Shown here: in pieces, positions 3,647-57,520 of the stretch
Layout of the letters: each line of letters begins with the position of its first letter
Numbering within the stretch: the stretch's first letter is position 1
Source: Tubiluchus corallicola
Taxonomy: Eukaryota > Animalia > Priapulida
Reading direction: 5' to 3'
Length of the DNA: 64,000 bases
Assembly (NCBI GenBank): GCA_030141605.1
Contig: JAQGDQ010000357.1
Location: 124,001 to 188,000 of the forward strand
Notes under the pieces: model-generated
What the model saw: only the letters and a program-made list of their open reading frames with translations
Told to the model about the DNA's origin: nothing
Database searches by the model: none
Made by a program: the position numbers and the translations under genes

Positions 3647-3720
<74 letters not shown>

Positions 3721-28800: not shown

Positions 28801-31800
28801 CTTGTAACATAAACCACAGCAATTAGACTCATCCGTGTTAGTAACATCTTCAACAAACAAACTTTGAAGAATCTCAAAAACTAAATTCAAACTGAAGTAG
28901 CTACTGCTTAACGAGAAATTTGATTTGTTGTTTTTGAATATATGCAATTACAACACTAATATCTCACCGTGGAATACATTAAAAACAATGTAAATATTAA
29001 AGCATAAATTAATGAATAAAGGGTTTAGATTTTCAATCTAGTGAATATACATAAGCTTGCAAAGAGGAAAAAAATAAATTAACAATTTTAGTCTTAACTC
29101 CTGACTTATTTTAACTTTGTAAATTGTGCAAATTGAAAAACAAAATTTAGTAACACAGACGTATCTACAATACAGCTTAGTTTAACTGATTACAAGCCTG
29201 CAAGAGTACACTACTAGTACACACACTGTAAGGGACTAAACTTATTGTACAGCACATAAACATCCAACATGGTGAATTTAAGCTTCAAACATAACACAGT
29301 CTTTACTATAATTTCACTCCAGCATTTGCCGCAAGTGGACGCTATATAATTTATGCACTATATATAATGTTAATTTATATATAGTGCTAATGTTAATTTT
29401 TAACTAAAAAAACAAACAAAAAACTTATCTTTGGAATTAATAGTATGGAGTATTATGTGCAGTAACTGTACAATGCTCTCATCATGATCTTGAATGATTT
29501 GCATTTAATCTAGCTAGACCGGATTTGAGAGGGCAAAAGAGAATAATTATTGGTGAAGTCTACGTGCTAACTACTGTACACAAGAACAAAAATTTCACGA
29601 ACTACGTGTGCAGTAGGTGACCTTCACAAAATCTGGCGAAGCCTACATGCATATTACGATACACTACAGCAAAAATTTCACGAAATACATTAGCAGTAGG
29701 TAACTTTTAGGCCTTCATATCTCTTAATATTTAAACTGAACTAAAGCATTAACATTGTAATGATTACAAAAACTTTAGACATCCCAGAGTCATTACATTG
29801 CGAATTAACTAAACTTAGTTAAGACTAAAACGTTTTCTTCAAGTCTTGTAGGCAATTTTGTGAAGTATTATACTGTATACAGTATATTATAAAATAAAAA
29901 ACAGAAAAATTTAACAAAAACAAAAAAATAATGTGCAATCATTTTGCAATTAATATCTCAAAAGGTACATAATGTTGAGTTATATGTATTAAGGGTCACA
30001 AACAAATTAATGACATAGTCAGCTGTCATTCTGATACTCCTCAACTAGAAATTTGACGTTTACAAAAAAAGTAAAATACAAAACAAAAAACAGGTGATAT
30101 CATTCCTGCATAGTTATTCGCAAATTAAATTAAGTTGGTGAAACAACTTTATCGTGTAAAAGCCTACTACAACCTGTAGCCTGTAGGCCAGCGATATTAT
30201 TGTAATTATAGGCATACTCATACTAATGATTCAACAGCTGTCTTTTCAAGGAATATGTAGTGAAACCTCATTTTAGTGTTTAATTTTTTTTAGAAAGAAA
30301 AAGCTCTAAAAAACGCACTGATTCCAAAGATAAAGTAATTACTTATACAACACTGACTTCATAAGGATATATACTAGCCAGTCAAGTTATTGTTGTTACC
30401 AGTCACTTAAAACGAATAGGAGACTTACGTCATCTTTGAAGATCAAACTGTCATTTTAGAGGATAATCTAGTTTGACGCCTCGTTGTAGAGTTAGGAAGT
30501 GACGTAACTTTTCTAGGCATACCTTGCACATCCTCTCTTCCTACTACATTGTTCTCAGCTCGATCCATATGCCTTGTATCGCCGTAGTTACAGAGATCAC
30601 TAACGTCCTTGATCTGATGTCTTGCGCCATGTCTATCTTTTACGAAGATCTTGCCATCGATTGTCCACGTGGATGTAATCTTTTTGGATTGAGCAAGCGA
30701 AATGCATTTTTTGACTATGTTCAGATTCCTGGCCGTCAAATCTTCTCTCACAACAAACGGTGGTGCCGGCATTTTATTCTGTCTGTTGTTCTTCACGAGC
30801 AGTCGACTTGCAGTCATTACTTCCCGTTTAACTCTATTCGTCGTAAATTTACATATTACTGCTCTTGGTCTTGGGTTGTCAGTATTAACACGATTAGCTG
30901 AGGCAACTGCCCCCGCCAAGCTGTCCATTACTGGTGCTGAGCCCAGCACTTAGTAAATGCATCGTGCTTTATTAAATGCTGGATATCTTGCTATTTGCAT
31001 GGCACTGCAGTGACATAATACAGAAATTTTATTAAGTAAAGAGAACACAGTCACTAGGCAAATTACTGCTGGAGCTGTTGCATGTAAACTCAGCATTTTT
31101 TCTTGTTAATATCAGTGTATAATTCTGCAAATAAATCAAAAACGACAGAACACCCTTGAATATTATAATACCATAACAAGCATGGTATTGGGTCCAAAAA
31201 TGTGAAACACAACTCTCAACAACTTTTCTGTCTACTGTGTGTTATACATATATATTGAAATTTAATAGCGTGATAAAGATGCCAAATTTTACTTTTCAAA
31301 AAAACAGGCTAAGAAAAATTCCAATTTCCAGGATGCACAACTGAGCAACAAGACTTCAATGAACACGACACTAACCTCATCAATGATGATGCAAGTAAAT
31401 TTCTGGTTCTCATTTCTGTGTTTGCTTAGCATCGGTGCAAAAACGGTATTACCACACTTGTTCAGGGTGCAACAGATAACTTCCGCCTTCTCCAGAACCT
31501 CTTGCTGCAGTCGATTGTCTTCCTTTTTCGATGATAGCAGATCCTAAGGAAAAAATTTTAAGTATGATGTCTAACTGGATGTAATCAAAGGCAGTGAAGG
31601 AATCTTATTAAGATTAGTATAAGATTTTAAGCACTCAGACAGTAGGGCATAACTACATGAGACATAACTAGTTAACAAACTAATCAACCAGGGCTAAGCA
31701 CTACATAAAGTAATTGTCGTCTATATCACAGCCCCCACCGCAACGTAAGCATGCTCAGCAGCATTCGGGACAACAGCTCACGCAGGACAACAACTGTCTA

Positions 31801-34800
31801 AGCTAAGCTAAACTAAACTAAACTAAACTAAACTAAACTAAACTAAACTAAACTAAACTAAACTAAACTAAACTAAACTAAACTAAACTAAACTAAACTA
31901 AACTAAACTAAACTAAACTAAACTAAACTAAACTAAACTAAACTAAACTAAACTAAACTAAACTAAACTAAACTAAACTAAACTAAACTAAACTAAACTA
32001 AAACTAAAAACTAAACTAAACTAAACTAAACTAAACTAAACTAAACTAAACAACATGACAGTCACAACTAATATCTAATCAGCAGATAAACTGATTGCTC
32101 TTTTTAATAAACACAAATTTGCAGAGCAGAAGCTATTTTAACACGAAATTAACACTTCAGTTAGCCAAAAATGACTTTTTAATTTAAACAGAATCTAGAA
32201 ACGAAGTTTCAAAGCATAACAAAATACAGAGACATAAATATAATAAACAAATTAAGCCAGTTAACCTTGCTTTAAAATAAATGAGCAACAAAAAAATTAA
32301 GTCTTTAAACATACGAACATCAAGCCTGCCATGCTTTTTTCTATATTAATTGATCATGTGCTCATCTGCAAGATTTATTAAGTTTTTGTATTTTTTCATT
32401 TGTCAGGCTACGGAAATGGGATAAATTTGATCGTCCCGTTCCATAGACGACCCTTATATTGAATGCCCATTGAGTTACATAAGTTCCCAATGGCAACTTT
32501 TAACCATGATTATAACCAGAAAAATTAAAATTAACTAATATTACACTGATGTACACTATAAGTTTTGACCACATTTGAATTAATTTTGACTGTGAAGATC
32601 TCATTGAGGTTTATAAAAACTGGCCAGAAAAGAAAACATTTTGTTTTGTCCTTATTTAAAGTTAATCAAATAGTTGTTTCTATCTAACTTGCAAAGCCGT
32701 AAACTAAACTAAACTGTGTATTTTCTTGATTGCACAATGGTTTAACCAGCAACTCAAGACGCAAGTTTGTAAATTTTCGAAACATTTCTGCATTTCTGCG
32801 TATAAAACGAAACTAGACTATTATTTCTACTAATTCACTTGAATTTCAGTTGACAATAATAAAATCTAGAGCCAAGCCAATATTTCTCCTGCTAACTAAA
32901 GAAAAGTTGAGCATTTTTCAATAACAGTGTTAGACGGAGCTGTGGCTAAATGTCCCGAACGTACCTGCTACAGGAGAGTGCGAAATAACTTGCACGCTGG
33001 TTGGGCAGTCAACGAAAATGATTGACATTATATTAGACGTCAATTATACTAGGATCATGTGACTGACTTTTTTATTCTCTCTAATTTCAATATTTATAGT
33101 AAAATCAAATTTCTAACTAAAGGATAAGAAAATATTTACATAAAAATAATAACGAACAACATTTTTATGTTAGATTATCATAAGCTAGGTTAATAGATTA
33201 GAAAGTGAAAACAGTAGCACATTTACATAGGTGGTCTCCCACAAAGTGCACACATGAGGGCTTCAAATTCTAAATATCAATTGACAAACGTTTTCAAGAC
33301 ACACATACAGTTATTTTAACAAGAAGTTAATAAACTTACAATGTAATAATCTATAACGTGAAGAATCGTATGCATGGCAATGGCTATCAAGTACAACAAT
33401 CAATATTTTTCAATGCTCATGGTTTTCCTAGTCCAGGTTTTGACACTTCTTGGTTAAATGATAGCAAACATAATATATGGCCCAATTGGGGCATTTATTT
33501 AAAAAAAAACATCCACTCATCTTCCCGGAACGTTTCGACATATATCAGTGATCATATAAAATACAATATTAAAATAGTATGATATAGTATGACCACTGGT
33601 ATAGGATGAAACTTTCTGGCAAATTGTACAGGTGTTTTTAAAAAGTTACTCATGTTTAAATGCCTGATATTATCAAAGAATTTTTACTAATTTTATGTTA
33701 CACATATAACAGTAGTATCATAACGAATACAGAGACAAACGGGCTCAAAAACACACAGAAGACTTCCAAACAACTCAGCAAACAGAAAAAAGGTTAGCTT
33801 ATCAGTTAGAATAAATTCATTATTGGTCACAAGAGTTTCTGAAACATGTAGAAATGCAGAGGAACAATGAAAAAATTAACCAGAAAATAAAGCAAGAGCC
33901 AGGAAAAGGTTGTAGAAAGAACCAAAATAAGCATGCACTTCAGTACAGACAAATAAATAGCACATTGCTTCCCAAATCTTTATTTATAGAAATTTGGTAT
34001 CTTGTTCCTACCTTTTTGCTCCTTTTGAGACTAACCAGCTGGATATTTAAACGATTTACTTCCTTTGCATTGCTGTAATTGCCTGACAGAACATTTTTCT
34101 TGCGTAGAATTTTTATTTGGTTCTTAATTGCTTCTATATCTTTGTCGATACTTGCCACGCGACCAGACAACTCTGAAATGATGAGTTTAATTATAGTATT
34201 ACTAATAATTATTGTTAAATTCAAACAATTTACAAAACCACTTAAAGCATAAAAAACACTCTTCGCAAATAAAACTTAAAAGATTTGTCTTGAAATTTTA
34301 TATCACTTACAAGCTGCCTTATTGCACACAGGGCTTGTAGTAATGCTGTAAAAAACTTGCAAATTGATGACTGTTGGGAACAGCCATTTCTATGGTAGGT
34401 CATTTGAAACAAGTTTAGGTAACGCTGTATGAAGTTCGAAAAAATAATCAGGGCATTCAAAGCACACTCTTCACTAACTAAACAAAAGTTTAAATGACTT
34501 TATTTTGTCAATAAGAACAATAATGTGTTTTTGGTGAATCAGCGGTGCACACTAGTATACAGTGTCGTTTTACCAGGTGGTGTGAATATTTTAAATTATT
34601 AAGAATTTTCTTTTTTCCAATCACATAAGCATTTTAAACAGGTAAGTAATACAACTTTGTACGAAGAGATCTCTGGGAAAATTCCCTTTAAACATAATTT
34701 TTTAGTACAGATTTTTGTACTATATCACACTGATGAAATTTACACAGTGGAACATATAAACAAAATAGGTGGATGGTCCATCCCTATGCATGCTTATTGA

Positions 34801-37800
34801 CAAAAGTTAAGCAATGTTGGACCGATTATCAAATAAATGGGCAACAATCAGGAAAATCGCTTTTATCCCCGATACCGCCTCCATCTCTTTGTCTCTGTCA
34901 GACCATACCTCAACTAGACGATTGTCCTTGATAATGAGAGGGTCTGTTTCATCCGTTGAAGTAAAAAATATGTCTGCTTTAGCATTCAGCCTTAATAGTG
35001 AAAAAACTTCTACTGTGTATAATATAAACGAGACTGACTAAACTGGATCTTCTGCATTAGAAATAATAAGAAATCATTCATTATATTGTCAAACAAATGC
35101 GAGAATTGGTTCCTCGTGCAAAGATATGCTTAACATTCTTACTCTCTTTTTTCAGATTCTTGACATGCTTGTCAAGCAGCGTGTCTACCACTTCATCTGA
35201 AACAACTTCATTCTTGGCAACTCTGACCAGTGTCAGCTTCTCTTTGACAGCTAAAGACTTCTGATGTGACACGAAACGCATTGTTAGCTCATTAATCGCA
35301 GCGTTAGATGGTGCACACAAGAGTATCTTGGGTTTCTTTCTCACACTACGGTACGAGGCCTACAAAAAATCAGAATGGCATAATGATGGTAGTCTAAGAA
35401 CATGCAGAATGAGGACAATGAGTACAATGATGACAGTTGAAGACATTACTTTTGTTGAAGATTGTTAATATTGCTTTTGTTGAAGATTTTTAATACTGTT
35501 TTCGCTACTTTTGTTGAAAACTGTTAATATTACTTTTGTTGCGTAAATTTTATTAAAGTGGTTATCCCAAGAAAGTTTGTTATCTACACAGATACCAAGA
35601 AAACTTACATCGTTTTTCTGTTTTATTATGCTATTTTCAACTTTTATTGATGCATTACTTATATTGTCATTTGAGAATGGGGAAAGGACCATGAAATCTG
35701 TTTGGTGCTATTTAATTTGAGTTTTAAATGGGTAAATGCTATGTTAATGTTTGCGATGTTCTGTTCTAAAAGTCGTTGAGCTGTTGCTAGATTTTCGTGG
35801 CCTAAATATATAGTTGTGTCGTCAGCATACTGTGTTATATTACAATGTGTTAGTGTTTTAGATATATTGTTAATATAAAGACAGAAAAGTAAGGGACCCA
35901 AAAGTATGCCTTGTGGTATGCCCTGCTGTAATGTTAGCCATTCTGAGACGGTATTTGTAGATAATTTAACTCTTTGTTTTCTGTTTGTCAAGTAACTGTT
36001 AATGAGCTTTAATGAAGTTGTATTAAATCCTAATGATTTTAAATTGTCTTTCAAAAGATTGGGGTCTAGGCTATCAAAGGCTTTACTTAAGTCTAAAAAT
36101 GCGGTTACAACATATTTATTTTCATTTAAGTTTGATCTCCAGTTTTCAGTTGCATGTATGATGGCATCAGTAGTAGAGTGTTTTCGTCTAAAACCAAATT
36201 GATGTTTACTAAGTATATTGTTAACGTTATATGAATTCATTTGTTCATATAGTACTTATAGTTAACGGATATAGGCCGGTAATTAACAGGGTTAGTTGAT
36301 GAGTCTTTTTTGTGGACTGGTGTTACATTGGCTAGCTTAGAAACAAACCACTAATTTCTTTATTTCTGCAGATGCATTGCAAACATGACACATTAAGTTG
36401 CATGATACAAATAAACAAAAGCAACAACAAAAACACTGACGATATATAGAGTAAACATCTTACCTCTGCAAAAATATTATGAATAAGACCAATGATAGCT
36501 CTTGTCTTCCCTGTTCCGGGCGGTCCTTGCACCATGCAGATCTTAGGTATCTGCTCTGGTTCCAACACCGCATCTGTGATCCCTGTGATCATCTCCATTT
36601 GTGACTGATTGAATTTAGCCCTCCTCTAAAAATATAAAGCAAGTAAAATTGTCATAAAACCAAGTAAAAAAAACCACAATCTTACTTGTTTACAGTAAGC
36701 ACAAAATAAAAATGCAAATTATACAAACACCAACTACAGTCATCTATGAAGCAGGACATAAAACGATTTTTGCAGGGAAGCATTAAGCCTTTAATATAGC
36801 TAATGTCAGCATTTAATGCAAATACAAAACTAATGTTTCTTTTCAAAGTGGCTTACTTTTTTAGCTAATTTGTCTAAATACGATTGACGCAGAGCAAGGG
36901 AAAATGTTTGCTGTATCACACAAAGTGAATTTTTAAATTGGCAAAAAAAGACCCTAGGGAAGCTGCCTTGTTATACCCCACACAATTAGTCTGTAAGTCA
37001 GCAACTCTGACATAAAAATGACAATACAGTTGCAAGAGTCGCACCTCTATAAGAAATTGAAAAAAGGAAAGACAGGAGATAGATAAAAAAAGAAAAAAAG
37101 GACTAAAAGACACAGAGAAGCTACGTCGATGCGAAACTGAGGCTGCGCTGACGCCGACGACGCAGTAAAGATGAGTACAATGAAGAGCCGCGTCATCTGC
37201 GTTGACATTTTCAAATTTAACAAGTCAAAGAACAACAAAATATTTTGAAACGCTTTTACTTAGATTTGGATAAAATTTTAAAAACTGAACAAGAAATAAT
37301 TTGCCACACTTTAATGATAGCAAATTGAATAACTAGGAAAATCGATATTTCTAATCGATTAACTATTGATTACTTGTGTGGGTCACTTGTTTGCCAACAT
37401 ATTGAAAGCAACTGTGGAATGGATCTTATGACAAGGTGGGCTGTAGATCAAAGAACAGTTAATTGAACTTGCTGATGATCCATTGGGGAATAAGAAAAAT
37501 CAAAATCCAATTTACTGCTTGAGTATGGCTTCTATGAAAAATTTTACGTGATATAATAATCACGTCTTGCTGAAATATCACTTCTGTTTAGAACATTCAC
37601 AAAACAGAGCAAAAAGTTCAATGCAAACTTTCCATTTTTTCTGAAACCAAACTGTAAACCAAAACTCGTAAACACCGAAATGAGTTGTTCGTGATTCTGC
37701 TTTTTGTTGTTTCATTGTTCATGAAACTGACATGATTGACTCTTTTAAACTGATTTATAAAGCATGCGGCTGTTATGTGGCATTTAAAACGCCTTTGCAT

Positions 37801-40800
37801 AAAAAACATGTACAATATTCCATGTTCTAAAAGCACGACAGATAAACAAGCACAACTGATTTACACCGACAACAGGAGTAACTTACTAGTGGTGATCTTG
37901 GACTAATCGTTCGCTTCACTGTAAATGTACTCAATCTAGGTTTGAGAATGTCCCTGCATAGCGGGCTTTTATTTAGCACCAACAAAGCATCAAGTTGTCT
38001 AACACTTGCTGACAAATTGTCGCATTTCTAAAGAAAAATATTAAACGCAAATGACTTTAAATAGTAAGCCAATTTCAATACAGAATCTTATGCAAAACTT
38101 TCATTAAGGACTATCATTAAAACATACCGTTTAGAATTTAAAGACTACAATCAAGTTTTTTCATAAGACTTCAAAATCCTATTACAGCAAAAACACTGTT
38201 TAATAAATTGTTGTGATATAAAGTTTCGATACAAAAGAACTGCGAAGTTTGACAGACATCAGCTTTTTAGCAAATGTATGTCTTGTTACTGATTATTCGT
38301 GCCTCCGATGCTAGACTTTTCTCCTTGATTTATATAATCAATCAAAACTTTTGAATAGAAAATCAATACATACGATGCATCGATTCAATTCCTCATAACT
38401 TTATTTGTGTAACTAATTATTTCATTCATTTATTTAAAAAAATATTCACAATTTTTGATGTTTCTAAAGTTCATTTTATAGTCTTACGTCTTGGAACAAC
38501 CTGTGTAACACCACATTTATGGCGGTATAATAAATTCTAATCAAGAAATTCTATGACCACAAAGGTTATTATTTATCATCAGTCTATTTCTATGTAAGGT
38601 TTTCAGACTGTTGCAGGTGAAAAGTGTGATAATAAGCACATTTTGGCAGGTAAACAACTGTTGCTTGTCAGACTTCAACAAAAGACTAATTTGGGCTAAG
38701 TTTACAATTCCCACACACAAGAAGCAGATTAGGGTTAGGGCTAGGGTTGGGTTAGGTGTGAGTTAGGGCTAGGGTTGGATTAGTGTTAGGGTATTTAAAT
38801 TGTGTCGGGAATTGTAAGCTCCTTCCCAAATTGTATGTTACTACAATTTTTGAGACATCGTCTCATTATTATGTCCGGACTTTAATCAATAATGACCTAG
38901 TAATTTTACATTTAGAAAGAAAACAACAATTTTCCACAATATTGTGAAACAGTTGATAAAAATATCAAGGGCAATCGAAACTGTAAATTTCTAATAAAGG
39001 TATTCACTAAGCAGGAATTTTCCCGGGAAGTGTGTTGGACTGGAAAATAACACGTCATAACCTTTCCAGTAGTTTGAAAGCACTGACTAAGTAAAAATTG
39101 CTCAGGAAATGTGTTGAGTTCCGGAGCAAGACGTCTTTACCTTTTCCAGTCCCCTAACACTTGCACACAACGACTAAATTTCTTACCGTTAAACAGATTA
39201 AGCTGCCATCATGCAAAAGAATCTTCTGAAGGTCCGGCCGAAGCTTTAGTGAAATCTCGTACTTAGTGTCCAGCTCTGGTCTCTTGTCTTCTGGATCTAG
39301 AAAAGAAAAGAGAATATTACTAATTATTACAATTCTCCACACAATTTAAATGCACTAAACCCAATCTGCTTCACAAACTAATTTCTTGTGTGCTTTAGCC
39401 GCATCTTTCCATCTAAACTAACTAAACTCGGTATCTCATACAACAGAAAAATAAGAGCTTTGCAAAGCATTGGAAAACAAGCACTTTTTCTAAAGTTAAC
39501 CTCATCACTAATGTGATGAGTACGCAACTCAAGTGTATTGCATCCAAAACTAAGTAATAATTTGAAACAAAAATGCGATAAAGCACAAAAACAGTGATTT
39601 AGGTTTAGAATTAAAAAAAGCACTTTATGCCATATATTAATAATTACACTAAAATCTAGACTGCTGCTGCTGCTGCCAGAGGGCACTGTTCAGTGGTAGG
39701 GAATTAAACTCATAGACAAGCAATAACCCCACCTCGAGGCAAAACGGACTAATGCAAGAATTTTACTGACTCTGCAGTTCAACCGATTACTCTTTCAACC
39801 ACCTCCTTGCTAGTATGCTTTTGAGTCCCTGACCAATCGAAACACTTCTGTATTTTATAAAACATAATTATTTTTTCTTAGTTAACAGCTTAACACCGAG
39901 CAGATTCATTTGATTACAAATTTTCAAGCTAATCAATAATATCTACAATACTTACATCTTGCTAGCAGCTCTGGATTAGATTCGGTAGAAATATTTGACC
40001 TTGTGATGTATCCAAAAACATTCTTCTTCACATTTTTGCCATGCATTCTAACGTAAAGGCCGGCGATGACTAAATCTCTCGTCAGTGGATATGAATAGGC
40101 AGTTTTGGCTTTTCCAGAAATAAGACCTGCATAAAAATTTAAAACAAATCGTATTTTGTTAAATGTTTACAGTCCTTCAATTTTTATGCTTTTTCTGTTC
40201 AGCACCAATTACAATCACAATCATATCAGACGAAAAACAAAATTTTCTCTGCAAAACTGAAGTGACTTCTGCATGTTTATCTATGCACAACAGTAATTTG
40301 AACCTGACAGAAACATAATAGCCTGATATTGTCCTTAGGTGCGGTATAATTTGAAATGTCACACGATACACATACTACAGTTCTGTTTTGTGATATAACT
40401 ACGATGCACAAGATGCCAATATTCAGCAATATCAGAATTTTTTACCAAGAATAACCAGTTTTACAATACTGCTTGTCAGCAAAAAAGTAATTTGATAAAA
40501 GCAAGCCTCTTTTTGCACAGAACTGACAATGGCTGCTAATAGGCAGATTATGCAGCAAACTGACTTCAAACAGCATAGCCGTGTAGCAGTAACTGTTATT
40601 GAGTCTAGGTCTTCTATAAACTGCTCAATAATGTCAACAGCATGAGCAGCAAGAGCTCCTAATCACTGTACAAAAAAATCTTCTTTTCAGCAAATTCATA
40701 GAGACTGTGGAAACGAAAATCTGAACACGTAACTTTAAAATAAGTACCACAAAAAATAAAACTAAAAAAAAATCACTAAATAAATGAAACATCTTGAAAG

Positions 40801-43800
40801 GAAAGTTGGGTAAGATGACTACATGTGACATCTGGCAAAAACATGATAGGTGGGCAAAATTTATTGCAAACAATATCAGTAAGTAGAATGGTAAGTTGAC
40901 ACACAATACAGTTAAACTGACGTAGGCTAATATTTCTACACACAATATATTATATTGCCTACATTGCACTGTACTGTCCACAAATATACAAATGAACACT
41001 TCGTGAAAAAATATGGGTTGCCTTCTGAAAATTTATAAACCCATGAAGTACAGTGACCTGAAACACTAACTGAAAGAGCATGCTGCATCGACCAAACTAG
41101 GTAAAATCAATGTCAACAGTATGCATTTACAGAGCAAAAGATTATGTTTGGTACAGATTATATTGTCCTACACTTACACACTTGCCTTTTATAGGCTTAC
41201 TCTTTGGTCTTAAACACCCTTGCAAAACTAAATCCTCATTAATCCGAGTTATCATTTAGAGGGATAACTTACCTTGTAGCACGACATCTCCTTCCTGTTT
41301 AGTTGTATCCCTGCAGTTAAGTAACACTGCTGCTGTCTTTTGGGGATCTTTTGAATCTTTTCTCTTTTGACACATCTATAGCAAATGTAGAAAAACCTTA
41401 TAAGTGCTCCACTTTTCAAAAACAAAAACTTTATGTTTATATTTGCCTTGACCAAACCAACAATATTCTAAGCATGAAGCAATCAAGCTTTTCAAGCAAA
41501 TACACTGCGCCTGAGAGCAAGCTGACTGCCATTAAGTTAAGTCACAAAATGCCAACAAATGAAACCTGTTAAATAGCTATTCACAAATTGATATCAATGT
41601 GTTAATATTATGCGCATAAGAAGATTACTAACTTCATATTGGTGCGTCAAGTACAGACCAGCAGCGGTGGAGATTAGTGATCATTAGTGACCAAAAAATA
41701 GTGATCACTTGTGCTTCTTTTTCAAACAGCGGTGAGGGGTGGAAAAGTTGTGCTTTCTCTTTTTTGTTGTTGTAGTAGCAGCTGTTATAAACAAACTGTT
41801 CTGCTTACAAATAGTTCATTATTTAAGAAACTGATTTGTCGTGGGGAAAACGAATCCTTTAAATAAAACGGCAGCCAGCGCCCACTTAAGAAAACATGAC
41901 ATTTATTCAGTCAGGTACAAGATCTGCAATGTTTCGACATGGTTACGTGTCATGTTTACAAAAACAATTATCTAACTAAAAATATAGTATAAAAGATGTA
42001 TACAAAGATCAACACTGTGACAAGCAAACACGACAATACTAAATAGCAAACTTACATATTGTGTTACATAAAACCAGAAAACAGAAAAATACAGTTTAGG
42101 TTATTGTTGCGTAAACATGACATGTAATCATGTCGAAACGTTGCACGTCGTATCTGAATAAAAACCATGTCTTTTCTTAAGTGGGTACTGGCTGTTATTT
42201 TTATTTTGTGTTCAGTATTTGTATTCATATATACAGCAATTTTCTTCAAGTTTTGGGTACAAACAGCGACTGCCGTTTCCATCAAACATCGAAGTGTTTT
42301 AATGTTATCATATCTGCTGTTGTCAACATACTTAAATCACCAATCACTTCATTCCAGAAAAAGGAATATTTACGAGAATCCTTTTTCAGCCTACATAAAC
42401 CAAAAACGAAAAAACATGAATGTCCACTTACACTAGCCCAGGTTTCATGCAAAAGATGAGGCAGAAACACACTGATGTAGTCATCAATGTTGTGGTAGTG
42501 AGTTGTAATGGCACATATTGTTGTCTGATGTAATTTTGCTAGTAAGTCTGGCGGTGGTGTATCACATTCTGAAATAAACCACAATTCTTTAACTCCATTA
42601 TGTGTACAAAAACATACACATGGTTGCAAGGCACAATATTAACGGTCGAGTATAAATGTTTATGCAATGTACCAAGCGAGGAAGCATCTTATGATGCATG
42701 CCCAAATTCGTAGTTTTTCCATCACGAACACAAATTAGACTCAAGCAGAGAAAACCAGATTTTAATACTCTAAAACAAAGATAGGCAATGTGAAGCATAC
42801 TTAGTTGCTGATCCAGCCAGAGATTATTCCAGTGAAGTATTGGTTGAAGAAAGTGCTCTCGAGTCCATTTTGAATGATGATCACTCGGTTGTCGCCTTCG
42901 AAAAGAAGACTGCTGGTAAACATTTAACACTTCTTGAGCAAAAGGTTTGGAAATACAAAGCTTCTTCGATGGTGGTGGTTTATCCTGCTGTTGAAGCTGT
43001 CGAGGCAAACATAGTCTGGGATCATGCAGACCCACATCTTTTTCAGTTTTCACGTCTGCCTGGTCATTGCACACCATCCATTTTTTCCTTTTCCGAAAGC
43101 GTAAAGATGTGGTGGAACTGACCTTATTTATCTCATTAACTTTTGTAGTATCTTTAACAGCATTATCAGGAACAGCTCTTGAATCTTTATCCCTTAAATG
43201 TTTTAAAGAGTCCCTAGTTTGGCTTTCTTTCCAAAGTTCAAAATTCTTGTGTACCTTGTGTTGTGTCACCTCTGAACAGCAAAGGGAATCATATTCTGTT
43301 GCTTTACCATTTTTTGTTGTGTCAAAGCCATTTTCTCGAAATCTTGATGTGTGACTAACCCGCCTGCTTTTATTTCGACTTGAACATTCAACATCAGTGA
43401 CAGCAACATTTTCTTTACTTTTTGCATCAGCAGCTGACAACATACATGTCACTTTTTCTTCATGTTTACCTAAACAAAGTGAATATAAAAAAGATACAGA
43501 AGCATGTCAAAAATATAAATATAAAGCTCTAACTTTAAATTTGCCTGAATGACAAGCAATGTGTCAAATTAGCTAACACGGACACTGCAAATGCAACAAA
43601 AATGCAACTTCGTTCTTTGTTACTAAATCTAGATCTAGATCTAGCAGGAATTTTATTTATACCAATTTCTGAGGAACTCTTCTTGAACTGTTTTTCCTCA
43701 GCATTTTTAGCAGGCTTGACTGGCATTTTGGCTGTTATGTTCCACTTCTGAAATGAAAAACACGCGTACTTATATAGCAGAAAATGTCAGACTATACAGC

Positions 43801-46800
43801 ATACAGAAATGCAAAATACCAGAAGAGCAATATTGTACGGTTTAGCTAATTTATGACTGCAATTATGTGAAACGAGACAGTCATTTGCATAAAATACTAT
43901 TGAATAGAAATAATAAACTTATATTGGAATAGCAATAATAAATGATTTAAAATAAGACTGAATTGTTTTTTGTATTCTTTTAGTGTTGCAAGTTCACGGC
44001 CAGCAACATAAATGCAAATGAGTAATAAAAAAATAAAAAATTAACTTACTTTTTCACTAAATGTAGCTTTATGATGTTCATGTTTCTCCATCCTTTGATT
44101 TCTGCTTTTTCTGGCAACACTTTTCTGTTTCTTTTTGTTTGCATGTTTTTCCAGACTTTCATCACATCTACTAATTTTATCAGATATTTCCTTTGCACGT
44201 TGCTTGTTTATCTTTTGCCTACGACTTGGTGAATGGCTACTTAAGGGCAACTGCGGCAAGTACGTTGTCGTACTCTGCACATTGTTTTCAGTGATTTTGT
44301 GTATTACATCATCTAAATTTTTTTTTGGTTTGGCAATGTTAGCTTTGTCACTGTAATCATGCTCACAGAACTTGTTTGTCGAATTGCCTATTACTGCATC
44401 AGACAGCATTTGGGAAAGAGTATCCTCGAAGCTCAGAGGTGAAGTGCGTCGCTCACAGTCAAGTAATTCTTCATATGGTGAATCTATATTCTGGTTTTCT
44501 AGGCTAGGCTCCTGACTTCCCTCCCGTGCAGTACTTTTAAACTGATCCAGTTTAAAATCAACAACTTCTTCATTAGCAACATGAAGTGACGATACATCAG
44601 CAGACATGTAGCCATTCACCATACCTAGATGACTGTCTTTTGGGATCCTGTCTTCTGTTTCCTGTGGGTGTTCCTGCTTCTCTTTCTCATGTTCATGACT
44701 TTTAAACTGATCTAATACTGACAATGCATTAACATCTTCTTCATTGGCAGCATGCATCAATTTCTCATCATTTTGTTCAACATCTTCATCTGTACCATCT
44801 GCTGGTTTCTTTTCGTCTTCATCATTTGGTTCACAAAAATCGTCAGGCAAAAATTCAAATGAAATTCCACTACTGACACTTTCACAGTCATCGACAGCAT
44901 CAGCAAGTTCTTCTTTTATTGCGCTGTCATTAAAAACCTGAGACAATACTAGACAGTCTTCATCCGAATCGATAACAATGATTTCTTCTTCTTTAGAAAA
45001 TACTGATAAAGCACTAACATCTTCTTCATTGGCAGCATGCACCAATTTCTCATCATTTTGCTCAAGATCTTCATCAATATCATGTGCTAGTTTCTTTTGG
45101 TTTTTATCATGATCACGTGCTTCACAAAAATCATCAGACAAAAATTCAAAAGAAATGGCACTACTGACACTTCTACAGTCATCGACATCACCAACAACTT
45201 TTTTATTTACTGTGTTATCATTAGAAACCTTAGACAATACCAGACAGTCTTCACCGGAATCAATAACGATGACTTCTTTTTTAGAAAACATGTCTTCCTG
45301 TTTCAGATCTTCATTAGATTTCTGAATGTTACTGCTATTGCTGCTTTGCAAATTTATTTCCTGCTGATCATCCTGTTTAAGAACCTCACCAAATTTCTGA
45401 ATCTGAGTGCCGATGCTGCTTTCCAAATTTGGACCGTGCATATCATCCAATTTGAGGACTGCATTAGATTCCTGATTATTACTGCTACTATTGTTAAGTA
45501 AAGCTGTTTCCTGGAGATTTTCTGAAGCTGCGCTAGACATATCACATTTGTTGTCACCAGAGATATCACGTACTGCTGTCTGTTGCGAAACCACAATAGC
45601 ATAATCTGACATGAATGTTGTGGTTAATTCCCTAGGTTTTATAAGAGTAAGTTTATTATGCCAGTTAATCATATCATTCATAAGAATCCCATAGTCAGGA
45701 TCCTTATAATACATAATTCGCCTCAAGACTGGTTGATCTTCCTCTAAATCATCTGGAAGTAATATGCTTTCCTCATCCATGCATGTATCAATCTCATCTT
45801 TTTCAGTATTTAATTGTACAACTTTTTTGTCATTTTCCTCTGACGACTGCAAAGAATTTGCATTCTTTGTCTCAGTACAGGAACGTTCTGTTTCACTGGT
45901 TATTCTATCTGGCTCTATCTCATTTGTGACAGGACTTGCAGAATTATCAAAAATGTCTGAAACTGATTCAGAAGTTTGGCATGCATCTGACAAAACTTCA
46001 ACTGGATCAGCACATTCCAATATAACAGATTCTAAATTAGACATGTTGCTATTATACGGATTAGCTTTAACAGGTTGCTCAAAAAAGTTCTGATTCATTT
46101 GTTCTTGTTCTGGATGTCCAATTTTCTTTTGAGAGGCATGGGAATGTCCAAGCTTAAGTGAGTTATCATTTTCCTGTCTCCTTGGTTTACCAGCCGTAGA
46201 CTTTTTGGCAAAAAACCTCATAACTGAAACAGCCATTTTTCCAGTCGACTTTCTTGCAAAATGTTTTGGTCGGTGGGAAGTAGACGCAGGGTAAAACTTT
46301 GAGGCATCACTGCCGACAACAGCCTTAACATTCATAAGCTTTTCGCAAGGCAAGTCTGATCCATGCATGTCATTGAGTTGCTGTTGTCTTTTCTTACTCA
46401 ATTTGCCTGTAGATTTTTGTGCAAAATGACGCAAATTATTATTAACTAACTCATTTTGCTTGAACAACAACGGTTTGAGCACTGGCTGTTCTTCAACTTG
46501 GACCATGCTTCCTATATGGTCAGGCTCAAAAATAACTTCTGGCCCTTCATCACTGCTACAAGAGTACCTTTGGAATTTCTGAGATTTGTTGACTAGATCA
46601 GTATTTCTAGAGTCTCTATCTTGAATAACATCTTGCAATCGAAGACAATCACCAGATGAACACTGTGTTGTATGATTCTCTAGTTTTTCCTCAGATCCAC
46701 AGGAAGAGTCACTGGAAGAATCACTTTCAATTATTCGTTTTAACCTTTTCCGAGCATTGGGTGATTTCCACTTAGCAGTTTCTGAAAGATTTGCAATAGA

Positions 46801-48791
46801 TGCATTTAACGAAAAGTTATTTTTTGTGGAAACAAAATTTGCAAGCAAGTTTCTGCCTTGAATAGACATTTTCCGTAATTCACAGTAACACATCTTTTCC
46901 AACTGACAGACATTAACTCGAGTTGATTTTAATCCACAATTGGGCAATGGAGAACTACAGCTCACTTGTGGATCGACAAAATGTGATGGTTGTTGTGGCA
47001 GAAAAGGTGAATGTTCTGCTTCGTCTGCACTGCTACCTTCTGTGGAAAAAACATCACGACGAAATTTAAAAAGCTGTGGGGTTTTATGACAGAATGAGTA
47101 GTGACGAGGTGGTTTACGAGAAACAATGTCAGAAATTTTAAGCAGTTTTACTTTTGTACCTTCTGTGTTCTTTGGCACGCTTTGCCAAACATCAGCTTTT
47201 GGTTCCACTTGCACTTCGTTGCCGCTGCTTAAAACTGCTTTCTGCTTCAGAGAGGATTTGAATTGCCTTCTTGGTTTTGGCGAGGCCGTTTCATCGCTAT
47301 CACTACTGCTTGAATCAACAATGTTTCGGATTCTTCTAAATTCGTGTCTAGTCCTTTGCTTTTTGCACCTAGGTTTTTGAGGAAGCGTTTTTTCATTACT
47401 ATCGCTGCTTGTTGTAGGAATTCTGCAGCTGCTTCTCACATTTGAAGTCACTAATTCACAGGCAGAAGTTGGTCGAAGACGTGATTGATGCTTCCTCCAG
47501 CGTGCTCTCGCTTTCAAAGTGGCACAGGTCTTGCAGGCTAAAACAACAACTTTCCATTTATTAACGACAACACATACATGAATTACGACAAAATTAAATA
47601 CTTTATTTTTTGTGCATTGATAATAACCCGAATTAACCAAAAGCAACATGGTGTTAAATTTAGTAATTTACATTGTTACATAAATATTATATGCAAATGT
47701 CATATGCAGAAACCCTGTAAGCTGAACTGGTACACACAGAAAATTGTAAAGTAAACTCATAAAATATGGTGAACGTATTTTTATATACTTTACATTATCT
47801 ACCTTACCTTACATTAAGCAGCTTTGCAGTTAGTACCAATTGCAGCGATGCAGTAATTTGGAAAATTCCAGTGCTTGAAAGGAAGTATTAAATTATATCA
47901 GTGCTGTTGATTAAAGTAAACTCTGATATGTAGAGAATCTTAATTCAGAACCAAAAACAACAACAATATAATACGAAAAAAACAAAAATATAATATAATA
48001 TAATGTAATGTAATGTAATGCAATGCAATGCAATGCAACGCAACACAACACAATACAACATAATTTTTTAACTTAACTTGACAGCGTTCGTACAATAGTT
48101 GTGTTCATCTTCACACTACAGGCAAGAATTAAATGCTGTTAGAATGGATTTTTAAAAAAACTTTACGAAAAAAGTATATGGAACACTAAGTTAAAAGTAC
48201 AAATATACGGAAAACTGAAAGTGGAACTCGTGCTCCATTGGCATTATATAATTCCGTTTTTTTGTATTTCATTTAGAATGTTTCATTCCGACATCAGTTC
48301 CACTTTCACTTCTTTGTATATTTATATTTTTAACTCACTGTTCCATATATTTTTTGCAATTCTTAAATCCGTTTTAGAGCATTTAATTCTTGACTGGAGT
48401 GTGAAGATGAACACAGCTGTGTTGTCAGAAAGCTCTCAAAATAAGAAGAAATATGTTTTTTTGTATTATATCATTGTTGTTTTTTATTTCCAAATTAAGA
48501 TTCTCTACAGATCAGAACTTGCTTTAATTAACAGCACTGACATAATTTAATACTTCCTTTCAAGCATTGGAAATTACTAACAAATTACTGCACTGCTCCA
48601 ACTGGAGCTAAATGATATTCTCAGTTTAAAATGTAAGTTACGAAAAGTACCAAAGCTGGACAACTCTTAATTTTTAAGTCAGTAGAATGAATAGTAGAAT
48701 AATATTAAAACTGTGACTTACAACTATAGGAAGACGGAATTTCATGAAGTTGAACAACAGCTTTTCTATGTTGCAGCTCAGAACACAACAT
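16860..48791 (-). CDS. SETX: Senataxin-like (Sen1/SETX, UPF1-type SF1B) RNA/DNA helicase, about 2190 aa
   Basis: GT-AG exons, all phase-compatible: 48791-48722 (ATG in CCACCATG), 47537-44050, 43747-43609 (or 43624), 43469-42801, 42568-42432, 41375-41273, 40126-39956, 39296-39187, 38027-37887, 36625-36464, 35359-35143, 34172-34012, 31543-31376, 24485-24319, 22169-21963, 21273-21139, [20565-20533 optional], 19668-19479, 17006-16860 (TAG). Total is 6582 nt without the optional exon. Motifs: YISVFLPHLLHETW, FNQSQ, QGPPGTGKT, CAPSNAA, VICCTL, IIDE|ATQ, VGDPEQLPATV, SLFER, QYRM, PYAAQ, TVDGFQGQEKD, RLNVALTRAK. Confidence 0.9.
17348..17754. mobile_element. MITE with CAGGGYTCCCACAG-type TIRs
   Basis: Termini cagggctcccacag and ctgtgggaaccatg, flanked on both sides by aaataa (candidate 6-bp TSD). 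Subterminal ttttccatgac / ttttccagga repeats. Confidence 0.75.
19479..19668 (-). CDS. SETX: Senataxin-like exon: helicase motifs V and VI
   Basis: EKVTISTVDGFQGQEKDIIILSCVRA...IGFLNCRRRLNVALTRAKHSLIVLG; ttcag acceptor and GTAAGC donor. Confidence 0.93.
21963..22169 (-). CDS. SETX: Senataxin-like exon: QYRM motif
   Basis: PIFLLDTQYRMDPQIAEFPSRHIYEGKL; tgcag acceptor and GTGGGT donor. Confidence 0.92.
22240..22850 (-). mobile_element. Highly decayed LINE 3' remnant
   Basis: Minus-strand AATAAA plus (TTCTA)n tail at 22240-22270, with an eroded coding-like stretch upstream. Boundaries are approximate. Confidence 0.35.
24319..24485 (-). CDS. SETX: Senataxin-like exon: end of motif II and motif III
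   Basis: ATQTTELDCLIPLQFGMSKMVLVGDPEQLPATVLSQAA...QSLFERF. Confidence 0.93.
24570..25335 (-). mobile_element. Decayed Tc1/mariner-IS630 (DDE) transposase
   Basis: Fragments NDVPLKTA*RWI (HTH-like), AIGNYLDGKHITVKR...NKKKR, EIVLVNAALTH (cf. DNAxxH) and ILRLSLYLLMLNAVEGVWSKFKGFVK (cf. LPPYSPxLNPIExxWSxxK). Many disablements; TIRs not identified. Confidence 0.7.
25588..28947 (-). CDS. LINE ORF2: PHD finger + apurinic endonuclease + reverse transcriptase
   Basis: 1119 uninterrupted codons. PHD: CGLC..IQCSYCNSYYHRRC..FMCLVC. APE: HMNV, ISETR, GGVGLY, IYRHP, MGDLN, LIDHI, SDHLP. RT: NYRPISLL, QFGFR, DLSKAFD, GVPQGSTLGP, FADD, YLGI. Confidence 0.95.
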   Translation of the reverse strand: MHIFKNNKSNFSLSSSYFSLNLVFEILQSLFVEDVTNTDESNCCGLCYKLITNYGIIIQCSYCNSYYHRRCVSIPTYMSNNDPFMCLVCYDNVFPFSKLDDSDLRKLLYHTKFEDFSDLPDILNSQCFTLNNYDQHDPDTIIPSITSQYFSPDEFHLCIDSNSSDLTMMHMNVVSLNEEKIELIHELLSPLRNPIKILGISETRLSNVSVSNYDLPGYFELLRHDSSLKTHIGGVGLYIHSSLTYFDRSDLKLNVNNCENLWIELDAKQHAGVVVGLIYRHPGGTLDSLKHFKSELESTIKIVNAEHKKLYIMGDLNIDLLKCDSHNFTAQYIDMLFSQFCYPLITRPTRVKSKTLIDHIYSNCINTEINSGICLYNISDHLPIFATVKNISVTRDKNYKTHKRNFKNFNKQKFIDDLETSFLNFEQYLTCNSPTEYYNYFLNTLISTIDKHAPLRMLSKKECKLLEKPWITRGILVSVRKKQKMYVTLFKSNDVNKQNKYKTYANILNKLKNKSKELYYIKKFQSANKDIKSMWKIVNELVKLKSQKNCPTKLVINNEQITQPQLMADKFNKFFVEVGSTLAQNIPNVNKHHLSYLTGNLANEFRFEPTNEVEVLSLLTGLKGNKAPGADGVSNFFVKIASSVISKPLTFIINQSFNTGIFPEQLKLTKVIPVYKSNSKTKLSNYRPISLLSVFSKILEKIAFNQLSSFLLQNKVLYDYQFGFRKSHSTALALIEITNKIAEALDNDQYVCGLFIDLSKAFDTVNHCILLDKLHYYGIRHSAQSWFKSYLCDRLQYAELNGCKSNTLPIKHGVPQGSTLGPLLFLLYINDMPLSCSNLIFRLFADDSNIFLSDSNIDNLESVMNTQLNKVTEWLNVNKLSLNINKSNFMLLKKKRRTPSRNITIVLSNVIVEKKSHVKYLGIFLDEHLDWKYQINIIKHKLSKTLGIIYKLRKFVNRETLMKIYYSLVYPYLIYGVMSWGGVYKSNLEALQITQNKILKLIYHVRYDHPTNIIYLSVKTLKVKEIYDMYCLHFMYHYHNSLLPPAFQSYFSPVSNQHDHYTRYSVENYVLPLPKTNIMKQSSKYNAIKIWSSIPREMKTLNLYQFKKASKNYLLQRYN
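30443..30949 (-). CDS. LINE ORF1 C-terminal fragment (L1 transposase-22-like RRM/CTD type)
   Basis: RPRAVICKF...KREVM...VREDLTARN...TWTIDGKIFVK is the typical ORF1 signature of this LINE group. The N-terminus is missing. Confidence 0.8.
   Translation of the reverse strand: MLGSAPVMDSLAGAVASANRVNTDNPRPRAVICKFTTNRVKREVMTASRLLVKNNRQNKMPAPPFVVREDLTARNLNIVKKCISLAQSKKITSTWTIDGKIFVKDRHGARHQIKDVSDLCNYGDTRHMDRAENNVVGREDVQGMPRKVTSLPNSTTRRQTRLSSKMTV
31376..31543 (-). CDS. SETX: Senataxin-like exon: motif Ib and Walker B
   Basis: QEVLEKAEVICCTLNKCG...FTCIIIDE followed by a GTTAGT donor. Confidence 0.93.
31797..32051. repeat. (CTAAA)n pentanucleotide microsatellite, possibly an expanded retroelement tail
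   Basis: Directly visible; preceded by a more GC-rich segment of about 110 bp. Confidence 0.97.
35465..36300 (-). mobile_element. Decayed LINE reverse transcriptase fragment (CR1/Jockey-like)
   Basis: NYRPIS, HQFGFRRKHST, FLDLSKAFD, GIPQG, QYADD, FLGICVDNKLSW. Frameshift near 35690; ends in roughly 28-bp tandem repeats at 35435-35540. Confidence 0.9.
36464..36625 (-). CDS. SETX: Senataxin-like exon: Q motif and Walker A
   Basis: FNQSQ...KICMVQGPPGTGKTRAIIGLI; tttag acceptor and GTAAGA donor. Confidence 0.94.
38693..38827. mobile_element. Small MITE with internal degenerate TTAGGG repeats
   Basis: Inverted termini gggctaagtttacaattccc and gggaattgtaagctccttccc enclose ttagggttagggctagggttggg. 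Confidence 0.65.
41858..42208. mobile_element. Fold-back element of the same family as 9811-10023
   Basis: Arms 41858-41970 and 42099-42208 are inverted copies. Shares gtcgaaacgttgca...aataaaa.ccatgtcttt...gtgggt.ctggctgttatttttatttt with the 9.9-kb element. Confidence 0.7.
44050..47537 (-). CDS. SETX: Giant 3488-nt exon of the senataxin-like gene (Ser/Asp/Glu/Lys-rich, predicted disordered)
   Basis: Uninterrupted ORF; gttttag acceptor (phase 1) and GTAAGT donor (phase 0), both matching the neighbouring exons. Confidence 0.9.
47827..48614. repeat. Imperfect palindrome of about 790 bp (fold-back element) in the first coding intron
   Basis: e.g. gcttgaaaggaagtattaaattatatcagtgctgtt / aacagcactgacataatttaatacttcctttcaagc and gttcatcttcacact / agtgtgaagatgaac. 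Confidence 0.9.
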
Positions 48792-50689
48792 GGTGGAACA
48801 CTAGACACCTAAAACAAAAAAAAACTGACTTTATTTTCCATAGCCTCCTGGACTTTATCTCGGACCGACTCTTTTGTGTACTAAATTAAAGTTACTTAAA
48901 TTAAAATGATATTCAAACTGCTCAGCGCTGGATACACGTGAAATGTATCAAAATAGAGACGGATTTTTTAGACTTTTATTGGTATCTTTGTTTTTGGTAT
49001 TTAAATTTTAGAACCTAGAACTCATTAAATTATTCATATGAAAAGGCATCAACTATTACATGACGTGCACATATCCTACTGTATGTCTGTCACCGTTTGC
49101 TATTAAGAATATATTTTAGAAAACTGTTGAAAGTGGAATGTTTTCACACATAACACGTCAATATAATCATCAAAATTCTATGGAACTAAAAGATGAAACT
49201 CCACAATCCAAATACCCCACAAGAAAAGATTTCTTATCAAACACAAGGTTTTCAACTACTGTCTAATAGTTATGATCAGGTATAGAAGAATTTTAGATTT
49301 CAGATAATTTAAGAATGTGCTAAAACAAAAGCATTATGACAGAAAGACAAGTAACTATAGAAACAGTCAACAGAAACATTAACTATAAAAAAAACAAAAA
49401 AAAATGAATAAATGAACAAGAACCTATAAATAAATAAAATAATATTATCTTTCATCTTTCGTTTTTTTATAGTTACTCGTTCAATGTGATCGTTTCTATA
49501 GAAACTGGTAATTCTGGACATCACAATGCTTTTGGCTTTAACTCTGACATGTCTTTAAAATGTTAGAATGATAACATTCTTTTATACCTGGTGACAGCTA
49601 TTAAAATACCTAAAAACATAAAGATTCATAAAAAAATTAAAAAAATATTGTAGGTCTTTGATTTAACATTTTTGTCTTTTGATGACTTTAGATCACGACA
49701 GAGGTAAAAAAAATCACCGAAACTCATATCAAAAATGTATATAAAAACAAAATTTAAGTGGTACATGTAACACACATTTTGTTGACTAAGGGCCCGTTTG
49801 CACATCGGGCACCCCAATGATTCGTCATGAGTGAGAGACTGAGAAACCATGGTGTAAATACTGTAAAATAATGTTTGCTTCTTGACCACCATGCAGCATC
49901 TATTTCTTGTTGACAAACTATTATGTAGTTTAGTAACTATGTTAGTACACTTCTGTTAAATTTTTGTAATTATATTTGGAATTTTTTCCCTAACTATACC
50001 ATGCTATAGTATACTAATGTAGTTCTGTTACAATTGTTGTGACTATATTTCATTTACTAGTTATAGGGCATAATCGTTATAAAGATAATAATGCAAATTG
50101 TAATGTAAAAATTCATGCTGAAGTGATAATAAATTACAATAAAAAACAATAGGCCGAGCGACTAATAGAAACTGAGTCAGTCAATATTAGTAGCCAAAAA
50201 AGCGAACAAATTAACACAATGGCATAAACACCATCCATGAAGTACCGGCAGAAGACGGGCATTAAACAAGTCAAAGTTAAAATTTTTTGTAAACTACTGA
50301 ATAATGTTGACAATGTAGGTAACAACTACACAGATCGTGATGGATGATGCACAACCAAGTGATAACCTGAAAGCAAAAACACAGAAAATAAAATTTAAAA
50401 AATCGGCCAGAAAGTGTACTCCTAAAGAGGATGGGAGTGTAAATGTATACTCCTAAAGAGAAGCAAGTACAACTCAGCAAGAACAGCACTCTATGTGGGA
50501 TGGCATTCTCAAAATAAATACCACAATGTCGTGAAAATCTAGAAAACAGCTAGAGTCTGAAGTACCTACTCTATGACGAATAATGCAAATAAGGGCAAAT
50601 AAGATCTGGTCTTACAAAGCTAACGGTAAGCTATTTACTATTTAGCCTGCTATACAATATCATAAATCAAAAAGTTGGCACGACGCCAG

Positions 50690-55745: not shown

Positions 55746-57270
55746 ACATTTTATTTAAATCCATAAAAAGATGGCTGCCAGTATACATATTTTTTTATTT
55801 TATTAACAGTATAGCTTATTTATGCCAAGTTCGAAGGCAACTGACAAAACACGCAAAAATTTTCATATATAAAACATTAGTAGTGCCTAACTTTTCATAT
55901 GGTTGCATGTTACCAGAAAATGTCAAAGCTGAATATTTTTCAAAATTAAGAGCGCTTTAAAACAATGCACTGACTGATTTCTGGCTATTCCTATAAAGTG
56001 TCACAAAAGGAACTATTAGGTAACAGTAAGAATTTCAATGAAAACTTACGTATTAGAAAACCGGTGAAACTATCACACTTTAATAGTCTTAAATAATAAA
56101 ATACGTTAATGGTCTCAAACTCCCCTTTGAAAATAACAAACTTCCTTGCTTGTCAATAAATTTAAACAAACAATAAATTTGATAATAATTCAATAGGCAA
56201 GCAAGCAATTTGTCTAGGGAAATTCCTCCCATCTACTATTAAACAATTAGAATCACTGGCTATTTTAAAAAAAATGAAACAATACAACTAAATAGATTTC
56301 AAAAACCAACTCATGTAAATGATTTAATTCAAATTTTGTATATCTGCAATAATTGAATGAGAATCTCTATATTACAGTACGTGTCAGGAGTCCTTAATTA
56401 AAAATTTGCAATTCCTAATTTGTAAATTGCAAATCTGCAATCTATAGTGTATAAGTAATTTTTGTCTGTACCCAGATATTGTAATATGTAGGCAAATAAT
56501 ATTATATAATGCACATACTAATCCAACAGGAACAAAATCATTAAGCCAATTAGCTACAACAAACAGAGTTTTCTACTAATAATATGCTAAACTGCCCGAG
56601 AAAGCGAAATATTGTTTATGACCAGGCATTGGGCTGCCTATGTGTGTCACAACATTACCTGCTTTATACAATTTCGTGCTGTATTGGACCAAACCAACCG
56701 TTGGTTGCGGAGCTAACCAACGCATTCACGTGCCGACCTCGCTAATTTTAAAACATTTTGTTGCAATGGTGTAACATTTCTAGTTACAGAGGGGGCACAA
56801 GGTTCACACGTAAGTGATTAGGTATTTTACACGCCACAACTCACTGTCAAATCTACCACGTATTATACAGTATCCCAAGCCATTACGCAGAACTACGCAA
56901 TGAATAACTTCTCGTAATTCGATTCAAAGTTCAAATTTCGAAATTCAAGAAGTCTTCTTACCTACGCTAGGTCTGGTTCTGGTCTAGTGAATGTAATGTC
57001 GGTATAGTACATAGCAAAACAATAAAGTCTGACAAAGTGACAAAACAGATTAAAAATCCTAGTCAATTCTTACACTATCAGTGTGAGCATCAAAATCGCA
57101 CTGCAAAAAGCTAATTCGGTCAGCTTTTTGGTTACAGCTGTGTTGCAAAATAAATAAATAACTTCAAAACGACGAAACAGTTAAAACAGCTACCTCAATA
57201 TCTTATCGCTAATTTGATACCTATCTATTTGCTAACTAAAAAATCTACATAGTGTAAATTTCCTGCTTAC

Positions 57271-57520
57271 CTTTAAACGTTTTACCGCTAAAAAAACTTT
57301 AGTACACTACAGGAACTGGCCGCATTGAACTGTCATCCAACTCTAACTTCCGCCATAACCGCTGAAACATTAAAGGTAATTGACACAGGATGTGTGTCAA
57401 GGGGCCACGGGCTGTGTACAGACGGCACAGTCCAAAAATATTGGGAAGAATAGTCACGTGATCCGAGCATCTACAGTACTGCGACGTTGCTGCCTAGATG
57501 GGGGTAGCTCTAGGTGAGCG
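57271..57520. promoter_or_regulatory. Candidate bidirectional promoter with two divergent first exons
   Basis: Locally GC/CpG-richer. Minus strand: ATGGCGGAAGT (YY1/ETS-like, about 57346-57356) and an AAG|GTAAGC donor at 57270. E-box GTCACGTGA at 57453. Plus strand: AG|GTGAGC donor near 57513. Confidence 0.5.

Follow-up and report, generated by a model that had tools for sequence, protein, structure and literature searches.

The predicted senataxin of the priapulid Tubiluchus corallicola carries, in a long N-terminal arm, three copies of the motif F-A-x-K-S-T-(A)-G-K that resemble the tail of histone H3 around lysine 9. The reading preferred here, held with somewhat better than even confidence, is that these motifs are selected H3K9 mimics whose lysines (K398, K453 and K469) would be methylated, SETDB1 being the probable writer, and which would dock chromodomains, most likely those of the Polycomb-CBX/CDYL type. 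The type of mimic would then be familiar and the type of protein that bears it new. The window analyzed is a stretch of 64,000 nucleotides, and an earlier note on it had described a senataxin-like helicase with three H3K9-like motifs in a disordered part of its giant exon, had compared them with the repeated AxKST sites of SETDB1, and had taken their recurrence between diverged flanks as a sign of selection. Each of these points is borne out by the evidence below, and the motif sequences are as given there.

The motifs are located in an open reading frame at 44041-47667 on the reverse strand. The predicted gene has 18 coding exons from 48791 to 16857 on the same strand, all with AG/GT ends, which join into an uninterrupted frame of 2,175 amino acids (Table 1). 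Its SF1B helicase core has intact motifs (GPPGTGKT, DEA, QYRM, VDGFQG, and RLNVALTRA). Among 12 open reading frames scanned with Pfam, five helicase exons scored above the cut-off for AAA_11 or AAA_12 and a sixth for AAA_12, and the giant frame had no match. The top named matches of the protein search are senataxins, the closest homologue being a probable helicase senataxin from Priapulus caudatus (P0122), with 37% identity over 756 columns starting at residue 1419 of the model. Sen1 chains in the PDB matched with E-values of 1e-10 to 1e-11, compared to 1e-6 to 1e-7 for Upf1, so that the protein is nearer SETX/Sen1 than Upf1. In a quick tree (26 rows, neither bootstrap nor Upf1 outgroup) the model is sister to Priapulus among animal senataxins (SH-aLRT 98).

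Contigs from sequencing run X2, taken to be RNA by guess, span two predicted introns (joints 35350/36463 and 41374/42434) at about 93% identity, which means that a relative or paralogue is spliced as predicted. The same run had no contigs on the giant exon at 80% likeness, which counts neither for nor against expression. Another X2 contig matches the small exon at 43660-43720 at about 90% and then continues for 202 letters unlike the window; the comparison suggests that linker exons diverge fast between this senataxin gene and the relative in X2. The promoter-like stretch upstream contains a YY1/ETS-like word at 57356 and an E-box-like word at 57460. Elsewhere in the window, a helicase-gene intron holds an open reading frame of 1,119 amino acids (25588-28947, reverse strand) with PHD-like, endonuclease, and reverse-transcriptase features, presumably a LINE. 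Further reverse-transcriptase fragments (35659-36255; 6318-7007) and a piece resembling L1 ORF1 (30443-30949) are also present. A Pro/Gln/Tyr-rich frame with YPGYQPG and PPPQQYY repeats (8940-9458, reverse strand) apparently belongs to a neighboring gene downstream of the helicase, and long trinucleotide-type simple repeats at 929-3790 give homopolymeric pseudo-ORFs.

Table 1. Features of the predicted senataxin gene, in window positions; residue numbers are those of the predicted protein.
Feature	Sequence	Position	Strand	Remarks
Promoter-like stretch and putative non-coding first exon		57270..57460	-	putative
Predicted first coding exon		48722..48808	-	ATG at 48791, in-frame TAG upstream in the same exon; prediction only
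Giant coding exon		44050..47537	-	3,488 nt, aa 24-1186; basic N-terminal part (mimics), acidic middle
Mimic 1	RHFAQKSTGK	46402..46431	-	K398, codon 46414-46416
Mimic 2	KHFARKSTGK	46237..46266	-	K453, codon 46249-46251; sole true ARKS among the clustered three
Mimic 3	RFFAKKSTAGKPRRQ	46174..46218	-	K469, codon 46201-46203; longest H3 match
SIM-like patch	VIVIDSGED	45247..45273	-	aa 779-787
SIM-like patch	IIVIDSDED	44956..44982	-	aa 876-884; second copy in the same internal duplication
Fourth site	SVARKS	44104..44121	-	K1167; isolated, single, could be chance
Sixteen further predicted exons		16857..43747	-	linker and SF1B helicase core (AAA_11/AAA_12)

Ala at -2, the Lys itself, and the following Ser-Thr, which include the positions critical to chromodomains, are invariant across the three mimics, and Phe at -3 is common to all. 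The A-x-K-S/T core of H3K9 mimics is thus present with its Ala at -2, and it lies in a region predicted to be disordered (FoldIndex -0.20), with composition predicting disorder across nearly all of residues 1-1400. Modeling exon residues 1-600 by AlphaFold from the single sequence gave a mean pLDDT of 38, too low to be informative. When the best-scoring triple of 8-mers was sought in exon residues 1-620 with no motif specified, the three mimics were returned with a score of 91; global shuffles gave 60.1 +/- 3.9 with a maximum of 71, local shuffles reached at most 80, and none of the 200 shuffles of either kind attained the observed score, which is about 8 standard deviations above the global mean. 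FAxKST is present three times where 0.0006 occurrences are expected (0 of 5000 shuffles); for the looser AxK[ST] alone the enrichment is mild (4 occurrences for 0.8 expected; 51 of 5000 shuffles). The likeness to H3 is also above chance: the mimics are the top three local matches to a 15-mer of the H3 tail in residues 1-1400, with a best score of 42 (null maximum 37) and a top-three sum of 102 (null 80-85), values reached by 0 of 500 shuffles in both the global and the local null. These nulls do not model all biases of real sequence, and the window was chosen from a very large scan. Mimic 3 has 9 identities to the H3 tail in 13 columns.

The identity of a writer and reader for the mimics can be approached through the preferences reported for known H3K9-like sites. 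G9a is reported to require Arg directly before the target Lys (PMC8541646), and SETDB1 to automethylate its own A(L/I)KS sites (10.1101/2025.10.22.683908) as well as a site with Lys at -1 (10.1101/2025.01.21.634156). Arg is found at -1 in one of the three clustered mimics (K453) and at K1167. SETDB1 is favored as the writer because it automethylates A-[V/L/I/K]-K-S whereas G9a needs R-K, and by this analogy it is the likely writer of all three. The suggestion of the earlier note that an H3K9 methyltransferase such as G9a may modify the motifs therefore fits the sequences in part: mimic 2 has the ARKS sequence, but mimics 1 and 3 do not have the Arg that G9a needs. G9a/GLP-type mimics such as ATF7IP K16, LIG1 K126, and Wiz (PMC6172828) share with the senataxin an H3K9-like Lys in a non-histone nuclear protein and the proposed recruitment of methyl-lysine readers; those are ARK sites, whereas here Arg is present in mimic 2 and K1167 only.

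For readers, PMC3013012 describes Ala at -2 as a requirement for chromodomain ligands, and its peptide arrays indicate that Cbx3 (human HP1-class) accepts solely Thr or Val at -3, while Cbx7 (human Polycomb-class) has the array-derived consensus A(R/I/L/F/Y/V)K(S/T) with a hydrophobic residue favored at -3; some peptides matching this consensus failed to bind. None of the three clustered mimics has Thr or Val at -3, all having Phe, although the Cbx3 rule is a human one and may not be that of the host. Under the Cbx7 consensus, with the same reservation on host, positions -3, -2, and +1 fit in all three mimics and -1 fits in one, the Gln and Lys at -1 of mimics 1 and 3 being outside it. The SETDB1 peptide RGFALKme3STHG is reported to bind Cbx7 at 5 uM, and a triple-methylated SETDB1 peptide to bind it at 1.2 uM (PMC3013012); a probe built on this SETDB1 fragment binds CBX4/7 and CDYL1/2, with weak binding of MPP8 and negligible binding of HP1 and SUV39H (10.1101/820647). 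Phe at -3 would accordingly disfavor human HP1-class and favor Polycomb-CBX/CDYL chromodomains, and readers of the latter type are likely for the clustered mimics, by preferences taken from human domains. HP1, named in the earlier note together with UHRF1, fares less well on this residue but is not without support, as a SETDB1 mimic with Lys at -1 is reported to bind HP1 when trimethylated (10.1101/2025.01.21.634156) and SETDB1 K1170/K1178 are also needed for co-precipitation of HP1gamma and SUV39H1 (10.1101/2025.10.22.683908). The latter finding keeps HP1 a candidate reader of the mimics. The K1167 site, VARKS, has Val at -3 and Arg at -1, fits G9a and, save at -4, the Cbx3 consensus, and would suit G9a/HP1 better than the clustered mimics do.

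The match of Phe at -3 to FALKST, the Arg rule of G9a, and the reader preferences together make the SETDB1 cluster the closest known counterpart. Sites K1162/K1170/K1178 and K490 of SETDB1 are described as hydrophobic-A-x-K-S-T motifs, three of them clustered, in unstructured sequence with a variable -1 residue (PMC3013012; 10.1101/2025.01.21.634156; 10.1101/2025.10.22.683908), and K1170 sits in F-A-L-K-S-T and so shares its Phe with the senataxin mimics. In contrast to SETDB1, the carrier here is an RNA/DNA helicase and not a methyltransferase, so methylation must come in trans. The lysines are 55 and 16 residues apart, compared to 8 in SETDB1, and the -1 residues are Q/R/K rather than V/L/I.

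A reading that we consider unlikely has the mimics selected and H3-like but active without methylation and chromodomain binding: they could be phosphorylated by a kinase, be acetylated, or serve unmodified as bait or pseudo-substrates that engage an enzyme or chaperone of the H3 tail. The Ser-Thr after the Lys is invariant in all three copies, and the consensus of Aurora-B-type kinases is basic-x-Ser. Mimic 3 has a Lys at the H3K14-equivalent position, and its H3 match extends to that residue and past it, beyond the reach of a chromodomain; the two copies that miss the Cbx7 consensus at -1 also fit this alternative. However, chromodomain binding accounts for the invariant Ala at -2 and Phe at -3, which the consensus of a simple basophilic kinase does not.

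It is quite improbable that the H3 likeness is incidental and that [RK]-[HF]-F-A-x-K-S-T is some other linear motif, as yet undescribed, which binds a partner outside chromatin, or belongs to a basic patch for nuclear import or nucleic-acid binding. The conserved unit does include an upstream basic residue and an aromatic residue that H3 lacks, and residues 401-500 are strongly basic, with 21 K+R per 100, but the H3 match exceeds shuffles of local composition and Phe at -3 is matched in a known mimic, SETDB1 K1170. PIP-box and APIM readings, judged by eye against the consensus, fit at most one copy. A strict PxVxL motif is absent, and the three patches that match the looser VxLxx[LI] are no more than chance would give (293 of 2000 shuffles). 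Two patches of basic-hydrophobic-SDSS/acidic character, RNIVDSSSSDSDE and RIIESDSSSDSS (window 47535-46650, residues 96 and 292 of the model), resemble CK2-type phospho-motifs; the expected number of such patches is 0.11, and 26 of 2000 shuffles held as many.

Evidence on the age of the repeats comes from comparison of the mimics with each other. Of 12 comparisons between mimics at four-fold third positions, just 2 show the same nucleotide, while seven shared residues are kept, and the flanks have 0-1 of 12 and 0 of 8 residues in common. With silent sites saturated and flanks unrelated, the mimics look selected and not recently duplicated. The saturated silent sites exclude a recent copy, so that the mimics would have arisen either convergently or by an ancient duplication that selection has maintained. 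Their identity at codon positions 1 and 2 is not independent evidence because identical residues were chosen; the silent sites are. Over the whole exon, the best 8-mer triple is a different, acidic repeat, H-[AV]-A-N-E-E, which stems from duplication within the acidic middle with copies about 95 amino acids apart, the closest pair of which is identical in 8 of 8 residues at all three codon positions. Run X1, read as DNA because it covers introns, differs from the giant exon at 29 sites (8 silent, 21 replacement, 0 stop; pN/pS 0.65), and the exon, on these counts, is open and weakly constrained overall. A single X1 contig over 46202-46407 has one difference, outside the mimics, a comparison of low power and possibly from the same source sample. 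Three X1 contigs fit at 44266-44323 and then continue into unlike sequence, and one of these loose ends can be translated into a diverged form of the same peptide, a hint that the genome contains paralogous copies of the giant exon or of the gene.

Relatives of the motif region were sought widely. There were no matches among 45 candidates of 664-2,114 amino acids, a range that a full-length ortholog of about 2,175 would fall outside, nor among 1.84 billion representatives; 130 pattern matches in metagenomes yielded none that was confirmed, the ESM Atlas had no usable match, and PDB chains of at least 20 residues gave none to mimics 2 and 3 at E-values up to 10. A search with the helicase exon at 35144-35359 returned no result. 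In metagenome helicase loci, all distant, 28 of 80 have at least 300 open codons upstream, with FAxKST in none and FAxK[ST] in one. The closest match, from Priapulus, is a 1,000-amino acid model, and the Priapulus models do not have this arm. From 121 proteins fetched, all of at most 2,000 amino acids, 42 have at least 300 residues ahead of the helicase match; these arms, many of them fragments or non-animal, are distant and in 31,638 residues contain neither hydrophobic-A-x-K-[ST] nor AxKST, and their H3 15-mer scores (best 29, top-three 76) are below those found here. Within this sample, senataxins therefore do not generally have the mimic, and it seems to be lineage-restricted; the protein differs from the animal senataxin/Sen1 helicases in its predicted disordered arm of 1,400 residues with FAxKST, a motif seen in 0 of the 42 homologues. 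Two senataxins from the cricket Gryllus (P0023 at residue 514 and P0024 at residue 567) have a single ARKSVGK each, with Asp at -3 and a score of 26, which is within the background range. That the mimics are functionless, whether left over neutrally from short duplications within the exon or clustered by chance and picked up by a very large scan, has a low probability: the exon does hold other internal repeats, is weakly constrained, and has a motif region without a confirming ortholog in these searches, but a neutral copy old enough to saturate silent sites and erase flanks would not keep seven residues three times over, and the triple score is far above the shuffle mean. The three mimics are probably under selection.

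The earlier note had also placed the motifs in a context of rewiring, with SIM-like motifs and loss of the normal N-terminal domain. The SIM-like patches VIVIDSGED and IIVIDSDED are present, as two copies within one duplication, and neither SEN1_N nor FHA was found in the exons scanned. For SEN1_N (PF12726) there was no Pfam match in the giant frame and no tblastn or profile match in the window, with a weak profile that recovered nothing beyond its own 8 members. The predicted protein has likely lost the N-terminal domain. However, neither feature is special to it. PF12726 is listed in none of nine named animal matches of at least 1,500 amino acids, although Pfam may miss divergent copies, and four of the nine carry FHA instead, so that an invertebrate senataxin need not have SEN1_N to belong to the family; FHA is found in all four named arthropod senataxin matches, and senataxins from Owenia and Batillaria show similar SIM-like patches. 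Since such patches and a missing SEN1_N are common in invertebrate senataxins, they add little to the idea of a senataxin rewired for silencing.

Drosophila Senataxin was reportedly shown by Wu et al. in 2025 (PMID 41167190) to act in Piwi-piRNA co-transcriptional silencing. Fly Senataxin is likewise placed in Piwi-piRNA-guided termination in 10.64898/2026.08.12.744517, which resembles the role considered here in having a senataxin act where termination meets heterochromatin formation; it differs in that the arthropod senataxins among the matches carry FHA and in that the part of the fly account available describes no histone mimic. In mammals, R-loop terminators are reported to recruit G9a, H3K9me2, and HP1gamma (PMC4581357). 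Among open-access papers and preprints, none was found to describe senataxin as carrying a histone mimic, and the strings FARKST, FAKKST, and FAQKST are absent from the literature matches listed. SETX is not named in the main texts of PMC10611923, PMC11703355, and PMC6172828, the supplementary tables of which could list it.

If the mimics function as H3K9-like sites, SETDB1 would probably methylate K398, K453, and K469 in trans. The three methylated mimics would then engage readers multivalently, in the manner of the SETDB1 cluster, and Phe at -3 makes the Polycomb-CBX/CDYL type the most likely class of reader. The R-loop/termination helicase would thereby be tethered to silenced chromatin, where Pol II transcripts would be terminated, and phosphorylation of the Ser or Thr after the Lys would release the reader. 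The broader proposal, that the senataxin of this lineage is a direct substrate of the H3K9 silencing machinery, written by SETDB1 and held by Polycomb/CDYL-type chromodomains at silenced loci where the helicase terminates transcription, is tentative and should be regarded as possible rather than probable. If the mimics are methylated and read, they would couple a termination helicase directly to chromodomain proteins at the molecular level, and the lineage would have arrived convergently at the FAxKST design of SETDB1. Under the broader proposal, the link of R-loop resolution to heterochromatin, which in flies and mammals is known functionally only, would here be a physical one in which reading, writing, and termination are joined.
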